In this document: piece by piece, positions 14,060 to 14,087 of the stretch
Numbering within the stretch: position 1 is the stretch's first letter
Layout: every line of letters begins with the position of its first letter
Assembly (NCBI RefSeq): GCF_003018235.1
Contig: NZ_CP027437.1
Length of the DNA stretch: 64,000 nt
Strand: one strand, 5' to 3'
DNA from: Escherichia coli
GTDB lineage: Bacteria > Pseudomonadota > Gammaproteobacteria > Enterobacterales > Enterobacteriaceae
The notes under the pieces: generated by a model
Told to the model about the DNA's origin: nothing
Databases searched by the model: none
The model's input: only the letters and a program-made list of their open reading frames with translations
Translations under genes and position numbers: made by a program

Positions 14060-14087
14060 ATTATAATTGTGATTGCACTTTGTGCAA
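14060..14087 (-). promoter_or_regulatory. putative sigma-70 promoter of the capsid operon
   Basis: Minus strand TTGCAC, 16 nt, TATAAT; -35 lies inside palindrome ttgcactttgtgcaa (14073-14087). Confidence 0.4.

Follow-up and report, generated by a model that had tools for sequence, protein, structure and literature searches.

A candidate LexA operator at the promoter of the capsid-like operon in an EcCICFT073-type satellite island of Escherichia coli

By analyzing a 64,000-nucleotide stretch of the Escherichia coli contig NZ_CP027437.1 (assembly GCF_003018235.1), hereafter the window, we tentatively identified a host-controlled promoter in front of a four-gene capsid-like operon that is homologous to c1498-c1501 of strain CFT073 and is carried by a Gram-negative phage-inducible chromosomal island (PICI) of the EcCICFT073 type. 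The minus-strand site at positions 14060-14087 is best interpreted as the sigma-70 promoter of this operon, placed under a LexA operator that covers the predicted transcription start and hence subject to induction by the DNA-damage (SOS) response; we give this interpretation a probability of roughly 0.6. That the site is a real promoter of the capsid-like operon is very likely, whereas LexA binding and SOS inducibility are predicted from the sequence. The elements on which the interpretation rests are the following.

14082-14087, minus strand: -35 hexamer TTGCAC, matching TTGACA at three of six positions.
14060-14065, minus strand: -10 hexamer TATAAT, matching the consensus at six of six positions.
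14051-14054, minus strand: predicted transcription start, most likely G14052, 6-9 nt past the -10 element in standard sigma-70 geometry.
14037-14056, no strand assigned: predicted LexA (SOS) box AACTGGATTTTCATCCAGTT, also the core of a hairpin, beginning 3 nt past the -10 element and covering the predicted transcript from about -4 to +16.

The gammaproteobacterial LexA box is a palindrome of ~20 bp with a CTG-N10-CAG core, the consensus TACTGTATATATATACAGTA and an AT-rich centre. The element AACTGGATTTTCATCCAGTT has the CTG-N10-CAG arms, overlaps both the promoter and the predicted start, and shares its arm sequences CTGGAT and ATCCAG with the ruvA box. Scored with a weight matrix derived from 18 LexA boxes upstream of UV-induced genes (PMC3009722, Table 4), it reaches 20.8 bits and exceeds the leave-one-out scores of 10 of the 18 established boxes, as illustrated by recA (20.6), cho (19.6), sulA (19.5), lexA (19.4) and ruvA (18.7 bits). 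It ranks first among 63,981 positions of the window, 5.5 bits ahead, and its score is matched in none of 300 simulated windows.

Homologous loci were gathered in three ways, namely from E. coli genomes, through first-gene homologues, and by scanning viral contigs for the promoter pattern. The box is found at this position in 90 of the 99 family loci, and its intact variants in the clade with a TATAAT -10 element score between 16.3 and 22.5 bits. Conservation per position within the family tracks the information content of LexA sites (Spearman rho 0.63, p = 0.003), and of the 37 base states that the family uses, 33 are also seen in real boxes. In E. coli, Salmonella, Pluralibacter and metagenomic relatives the CTG, AT, T and CAG elements are fixed, and changes occur only to states that LexA tolerates; in Pluralibacter (locus L005) the box lies 15 nt farther downstream and is intact. 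In a sister clade of eight loci (L009, L010, L025, L051, L067, L077, L080 and L091), whose first protein starts with MGTQKPGG, the box was lost after a shortening of ~5 nt that left only its left half-site, and the -10 element reads TAAAAT. The coincidence of box loss with this weaker -10 element is consistent with a promoter down-mutation accompanying the loss of an operator.

The promoter itself was evaluated by the presence of -35 and -10 hexamers at a spacing of 16-18 nt, with a threshold of 4/6 matches for the -35 hexamer in the consensus scan. TTGCAC and TATAAT are separated by 16 nt, and their coordinates (14087-14082 and 14065-14060), given in a prior sequence-only reading of the window that noticed them on the minus strand just upstream of the capsid operon, are exact. 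Its description of the promoter as near-consensus is appropriate for the -10 hexamer but not for the -35 hexamer or the 16-nt spacer; the site is absent from the consensus scan list because the -35 hexamer has three matches and the spacer is 16 rather than 17 nt long. The bare pattern TTGNNN-16..18-TATAAT occurs twice in the window versus 1.6 occurrences expected, and therefore any functional claim must rest on context and conservation.

Both were assessed in eight divergent loci found independently of the promoter pattern. The TTGC of the -35 hexamer is invariant at all four positions, with positions 5 and 6 free to vary, and TATAAT is invariant at five of six. The most conserved block of the region is the spacer block AAnTGCAAT (8/9 positions invariant). 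Neutral sites of the same loci have diverged, with invariance at 2 of 68 third codon positions and at 1 of 42 positions of the spacer between the upstream terminator and the promoter. All 88 pattern matches in viral contigs precede the same satellite operon, which indicates that this architecture is specific to the satellite family and was not copied from a phage promoter. The sequence ATTATAAT is symmetric and thus presents TATAAT on both strands. The possibility of a divergent plus-strand promoter was set aside, since the symmetry is broken in two lineages (the TAAAAT clade and Salmonella with TTTATAAT) and both retain -11A and -7T only on the capsid strand.

The position of the promoter is also supported by available RNA-seq data for CFT073 (supplement of PMC12890032). 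Upon a shift from 23 to 37 C, all four genes of the homologous operon are significantly induced (log2 fold change +2.24 for c1498, +2.05 for c1499, +1.45 for c1500 and +1.17 for c1501), whereas the changes for the flanking genes ssb (+0.24) and c1503 (+0.33) are not significant. Since c1498-c1501 shift as a unit that begins at c1498 and the flanks do not, the promoter is placed immediately upstream of c1498. The sequence-only reading had further proposed that a strong promoter under operator control holds the capsid genes off until induction. Operator control is plausible and the proposal was right in spirit, but the best-supported operator is the LexA box at 14056-14037, which it had missed, rather than a palindrome at the -35 element; the inducing signal would accordingly be SOS and not a helper-specific product. 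Repression until induction is likewise plausible, but the promoter is not strictly off, given the about 4-fold response of CFT073 to temperature with SOS genes flat.

Several other candidate explanations of the site were considered and rejected. Mimicry of a helper late promoter or Q site is not indicated, as blastn against phages matched only a cos-like module farther upstream and the viral-contig matches belong to the satellite operon itself. PerC as a required activator does not fit the conservation of the promoter in islands without perC. By inspection, a sigma-54 promoter (TGGCAC-N5-TTGC) is contradicted by a spacing 2 nt too short and a missing GG, and a lambda CII-type site (TTGC-N6-TTGC) by a second repeat that reads TGCA and not TTGC. 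A search for a motif common to the alpA upstream region and the capsid promoter gave nothing beyond ATTTGC. The match to the Rfam family STnc50 on the plus strand (13986-14066) scores 31 bits against a gathering score of 55 and is a generic hairpin and A/U-rich match to an unrelated Salmonella small RNA.

A number of observations weigh against SOS control of the promoter. The literature searched gave no mention of LexA boxes, of binding by LexA or of induction by SOS for an E. coli PICI capsid operon, and deletion of c1499 or c1500 gave no phenotype (PMC6092414), which raises the question of what purpose regulation of the operon would serve. The box belongs to the weaker CTGG...CCAG class and not to CTGT...ACAG. 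The SOS genes sulA, dinB, uvrB, dinI and umuD are flat during the thermal induction of c1498-c1501, which amounts to about 2- to 5-fold; a LexA-independent layer thus exists, so that LexA is not the sole control and repression may be partial. The palindrome also reaches beyond the LexA 20-mer (CAnnn...nnnTG) and is followed by a run of six to eight T, and any such palindrome forms a hairpin as well. Finally, loci L016 and L076 carry compensatory changes outside the LexA 20-mer, in the outer stem, which hint at an additional role at the RNA level. The thermal response and the hairpin each lead to an alternative explanation, for which two further features are relevant.

14088-14120, minus strand: AT-rich upstream boxes ATTTCAT, TTGCAA[C/T] and TCAAT, at about -68 to -36.
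14026-14033, minus strand: T8 run, 3 bases past the extended stem (CAC AACTGGAT...ATCCAGTT ATG), a terminator-like site in the scan that is kept in most variants.

The upstream boxes are invariant at 11 of 33 columns, compared with 1/42 in the adjacent spacer and 2/68 at third codon positions; they possibly represent an UP element, sub-sites of an operator at the -35 element, or sites of the H-NS or IHF type. A ~10-bp helical periodicity of these boxes was tried and rejected (autocorrelation 0.08, p = 0.25). The promoter region has 27.5-31% GC (27.5% in the boxes) versus 49% for the island, a composition that would fit a thermoregulatory layer of the H-NS type. Together with the induction at the shift from 23 to 37 C and with the loss of the box in one clade, this low GC content favors a real promoter that is essentially a horizontally acquired, AT-rich element under thermoregulation, the SOS-box-like palindrome being a non-functional relic. 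However, a relic would decay, while the fixed core elements, the restriction of changes to LexA-tolerated states, the intact relocated box and the coincidence of its loss with a weaker -10 element all speak for selection on the box, and we regard this explanation as very improbable. Nearly as improbable, in our estimate, is a primary role of the palindrome and T-run in RNA, either as a promoter-proximal terminator or attenuator that needs a helper antiterminator (Q- or N-like) or another factor, as in lambda PR'-tR', or as a second terminator against upstream read-through. For such a role speak the scan, the compensatory changes of L016 and L076, and the stability of the stem, which is -9.5 kcal/mol in the window when read from upstream, -14.4 in CFT073 and -14.4 to -18.9 in many relatives, followed by the T6-T8 run. 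In locus L008 (CTGTAT-ATAA-ATTCAG) the hairpin and the T-run are lost together; the box, at 19.2 bits, resembles that of uvrA. Against it, hairpin stability is not conserved among the intact TATAAT-clade variants (-3.9 to -18.9 kcal/mol) while the LexA score is. A change of ATCCAG to ATACAG recurs and disrupts the stem while raising the LexA score, the sole variable pair 6/15 (G-C, G.A or T.T) changes irrespective of pairing and within LexA tolerance, and most variants have a G.A mismatch at the x position of the outer stem. With a start 7-8 nt past the -10 element the promoter's own RNA lacks the 5' arm, leaving -3 kcal/mol if it begins at G14052. In addition, CFT073 expresses the operon without deliberate helper induction, and phage promoters do not have this architecture, all 88 viral-contig matches being the satellite operon. 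Having three G-C pairs, variable stability and recurrent pairing-breaking variants, the box hairpin falls outside the definition of a rho-independent terminator, which asks for a stable G+C-rich stem, a U-run directly after it and pairing that relatives preserve. For transcripts arriving from upstream, the stem with its T8 run does look like a terminator. Because the stem is stable only when read from upstream, the predicted LexA box may double as a back-up terminator against read-through without stopping the promoter's own transcripts.

The palindrome at the -35 element calls for separate consideration.

14073-14087, no strand assigned: palindrome TTGCAC-AAA-GTGCAA with the core TGCA-N5-TGCA (14086-14074), over the -35 element and the spacer.

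As the sequence-only reading had noted, the -35 hexamer lies inside this palindrome, which has a perfect 6-3-6 form at 14087-14073. The perfect form is peculiar to the window; conservation is limited to the core TGCA-N5-TGCA or TTGC-N7-GCAA, whose right half (TGCAAT, in the spacer) does not vary, whereas its left half reads TGC[A/T/G] in relatives. The invariance of spacer bases is unexplained by sigma-70 and argues for a bound factor, so that the palindrome is probably a second operator, as judged from its conservation pattern. Its geometry is that of the CopG and Arc operators, TGCA-CAAAG-TGCA at 14086-14074 being a symmetric 13-bp element that lies over the -35 hexamer and in which 5 bp separate two 4-bp boxes. 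By analogy, the binder may be the operon's own first product, a 68 aa protein acting as a CopG-like autorepressor. This protein has 16 representatives among 1.8 billion proteins and no tblastn match in 50,697 phage records. Its ribbon-helix-helix (RHH) signals are weak and below threshold (hhalign probability about 1%), and searches with Foldseek and with a PDB profile gave nothing significant; an RHH fold is possible. The earlier proposal, in which the -35 palindrome is the principal operator, a repressor holds the strong promoter off until helper induction and the resemblance to an SOS box is irrelevant, appears unlikely to us, although it is the alternative that we take most seriously. The conserved core and the invariant spacer bases are in its favor. 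It is weakened by the lack of an identified binder and of a significant RHH assignment, by the variation of the left half-site without compensation, and by the frequency of the motifs, as TTGC-N7-GCAA occurs 3 times in the window versus 2.7 expected and TGCA-N5-TGCA is likewise no rarer than chance. Above all, it leaves a statistically outstanding and selectively maintained SOS box unexplained. The two models are compatible, and the -35 element may well be a second operator beside the LexA box.

In the mechanism that we propose, a LexA dimer on the box (about -4 to +16) would block initiation in the undamaged cell, and DNA damage would free the promoter through RecA-stimulated self-cleavage of LexA. 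The same signal induces lambdoid helper prophages, so that the capsid-like proteins of the satellite would be made at or before the helper late phase. The TGCA-N5-TGCA element over the -35 hexamer would probably bind a second factor, maybe the first product of the operon as a CopG-like autorepressor; the AT-rich upstream region probably accounts for the temperature control independent of LexA, and the strong upstream terminator would insulate the capsid unit. A more elaborate version of this scheme, which we consider speculative and on balance doubtful, is a double lock in which the LexA operator doubles as a terminator-like insulating stem and a CopG-style operator at the -35 element is read by the 68 aa product. 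In this version SOS boxes would have been shifted, across the family, from one to the other of two places, the capsid promoter and the int/alpA region, and some Gram-negative PICIs would sense DNA damage directly, whereas present descriptions have them do so solely via a helper phage.

Other recurrent LexA-like sites in the 99 family loci are confined to the int-alpA intergenic region (window positions 20070-20089 and 20181-20200; loci L001, L023, L028, L017, L075 and L091). The window and CFT073 (L001) have imperfect sites of 15-18 bits with the form CTG-N10-CA[T/C], about 215-237 nt upstream of alpA. Islands of the L028 type have full boxes of 17-20 bits adjoining TATAAT just past int, and in L091, which belongs to the clade without a box at the capsid promoter, a box of 25.3 bits precedes an alpA-like gene by about 50 nt. 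According to published data, alpA of EcCICFT073 is not SOS-dependent. Two additional features were observed on the minus strand of the same region. A run of (G/A)AACAA(C/T) repeats at ~20125-20175, between the int stop codon and alpA and also present in CFT073, may serve Int or AlpA as arm-type sites. At ~20013-20045, between the imperfect LexA-like site and alpA, a terminator-like hairpin (GGCATAAAA...TTTTATGCC, then TTT) suggests either that a short transcript is made or that the alpA promoter is insulated.

The main feature upstream of the promoter is a terminator.

14163-14205 (arms 14159-14179 and 14191-14211), minus strand: strong intrinsic terminator between an A-run and a T-run, -23 kcal/mol, z = -6.2.

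The hairpin at 14205-14163 conforms to the definition of a rho-independent terminator; its stem is conserved in E. coli relatives, and equivalent hairpins are found in distant ones. It ends the rep-ssb-perC unit and insulates the capsid promoter, and it is potentially bidirectional. The hairpin with a T-run that had been noticed near the promoter (14170-14205) is therefore present, its role being that of a terminator for the upstream operon. The palindrome ATCATC/GATGAT from the same reading is also present, with arms at 14235-14252 and 14295-14312, but it is not part of the promoter. It belongs to a cos-like module of ~180 bp (14206-14385) that separates the perC terminator (14402-14381) from the one at 14205-14163 and is absent from CFT073. 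The module is about 80% identical to Shiga toxin (Stx) phages and collinear with the Rz-terminase intergenic (cos) region of VT1-Sakai, and the ATCATC/GATGAT arms are conserved between satellite and phage; from this similarity, the module is probably an extra cos site of the Stx-phage type. Inspection of a 19-codon open reading frame (ORF) within it showed that all its differences from HM670 are non-synonymous, so it is probably not coding. Shortly downstream of the capsid operon, the lambda-type cosN core GGGCGGCGACCT is present in two exact copies of opposite orientation (11273-11284 on the plus strand and 11898-11909 on the minus strand), which probably correspond to the published cos1 and cos2 of EcCICFT073.

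Gram-negative PICIs are recognized by a length of ~10-15 kb, co-oriented int, alpA and pri/rep genes, late-zone genes with cos sites, and a specific att site. The island in the window combines int, alpA, rep and the capsid operon and is inserted at phoQ/roxA as in CFT073, and it also carries ssb and a PerC-family gene. Its components and the genes of the capsid operon are as follows.

~10.2-21.5 kb of the window: integrative island between phoQ and roxA.
20229-21479: int.
19666-19854: alpA.
15916-17325: AAA_25 replication protein (rep).
14014-14022, minus strand: Shine-Dalgarno region AAAGAGGAA of the first gene of the capsid operon.
13798-14004, minus strand: first gene (homologue of CFT073 c1498), 68 aa satellite-specific protein, phrog_3255.
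12743-13798, minus strand: lambda gpE-type major capsid protein (c1499 homologue), PF03864 4e-50, phrog_29 1e-107.
12396-12731, minus strand: lambda gpD-type head decoration protein (c1500 homologue), PF02924 1.9e-17, phrog_49.
11970-12383, minus strand: fourth gene (c1501 homologue), 137 aa, phrog_1999, also matching positions 494-567 of 583 of phrog_53 (5.6e-8).

In the Shine-Dalgarno region of the first gene, GTCAAAGAGGAATTT is kept among relatives. The product of the fourth gene resembles, by its profile match, the C-terminal, Nu3-like scaffold part of head-maturation proteases. The satellite would thus code for a capsid, a decoration and a scaffold-like protein while lacking genes for a protease, a portal and a terminase.

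Two other regions of the island deserve mention. The Rfam models for C4 antisense RNA (78 bits; 18345-18432, minus strand) and isrK (63.5 bits; 18457-18533, minus strand) match above their gathering scores beside an Icd-like region. Both matches lie inside a 504-aa ORF (18099-19613), so that this ORF is almost certainly no real gene, and the region looks like an immunity-like module of the P1 c4/icd/ant type in a satellite. The PerC-family ORF (14410-14802, minus strand) has a listed GTG start that overlaps ssb, and its true start is probably M41, at about 14682, because the Pfam match begins at residue 41. PerC homologues of PICIs are reported either to have no effect on the pathogenicity island LEE (locus of enterocyte effacement) or to repress it.

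The predicted LexA operator would tie genes of the c1498-c1501 type to the SOS signal that wakes helper prophages. If the prediction is correct, the operon responds to DNA damage without a need for AlpA or helper products, like operon I of the staphylococcal pathogenicity islands (SaPIs), and its function should be sought soon after the onset of SOS, an example being that it interferes with the assembly of helper heads. Gram-negative PICIs, now described as SOS-insensitive and helper-activated, would then be partly wired directly to the host SOS response, and engineered PICI vehicles for delivery or diagnostics could use the promoter as a compact expression site that damage induces. LexA-gated morphogenesis operons of satellites are already known; the new element is a candidate LexA box that makes the unexplained c1498-c1501 operon directly testable.

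A close relative of the system is c1498-c1501 of EcCICFT073 (Fillol-Salom 2018, 2019: PMC6092414, PMC6739421), a homologous operon at the same chromosomal site and with the same gene order, whose promoter and intergenic region, SOS box included, are about 90% identical to those of the window. In the published work on EcCICFT073 the capsid (c1499) and decoration (c1500) genes are without a known phenotype and the promoter is not described. The two islands differ in that the window has an AAA_25 replication module and CFT073 a P4-type primase, and the perfect 6-3-6 palindrome at the -35 element, the box centre TTTC instead of GAAC, and the extra cos-like module of the Stx-phage type upstream are features of the window. 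Among established SOS sites, the boxes of ruvAB (CGCTGGATATCTATCCAGCA) and cho (CACTGGATAGATAACCAGCA) (PMC3009722, Table 4) are close counterparts, as they share the CTGG...CCAG class, a similar score and the promoter location; they precede DNA-repair genes, whereas the predicted box described here is on a mobile satellite before structural-type genes.

The proposed operator at the -35 element has its counterparts in CopG/Pcr of pMV158 and Arc/Pant of P22, RHH autorepressors whose symmetric 13-bp element, overlapping the -35 hexamer, consists of two boxes of 4 bp with a 5-bp gap (PMC2724298). The likeness is in the placement of TGCA-N5-TGCA (TGCA-CAAAG-TGCA in the window) over the -35 element of the promoter for the repressor's own first cistron; the differences are that the 68 aa protein is not demonstrably RHH, that the left box is not strictly TGCA in relatives, and that binding is predicted here. 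The arrangement also recalls lambda PR'-qut-tR', where a constitutive-looking promoter is followed closely by a hairpin and a T-run ahead of structural genes. In the satellite, however, the hairpin begins within the initiation region, at about -4, and there is no likeness to phage late promoters; the lambda Q-antitermination model was set aside, as the variation of the palindrome follows LexA rules.

With respect to regulatory logic, the precedent is packaging operon I of the SaPIs, which is LexA-controlled according to Ubeda 2007 as cited in PMC6092414, while for Gram-negative PICIs the published work reports control through AlpA and the helper and mentions no role for LexA. The motif in SaPIs is the Gram-positive GAAC-N4-GTTC and in the window the gammaproteobacterial CTG-N10-CAG, the host phylum and the gene contents differ, and the control is experimentally shown for SaPIs and predicted here. 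Common to both would be a satellite operon of the capsid or packaging type that is placed under the host SOS repressor and fires with the very signal that induces the helper prophage.

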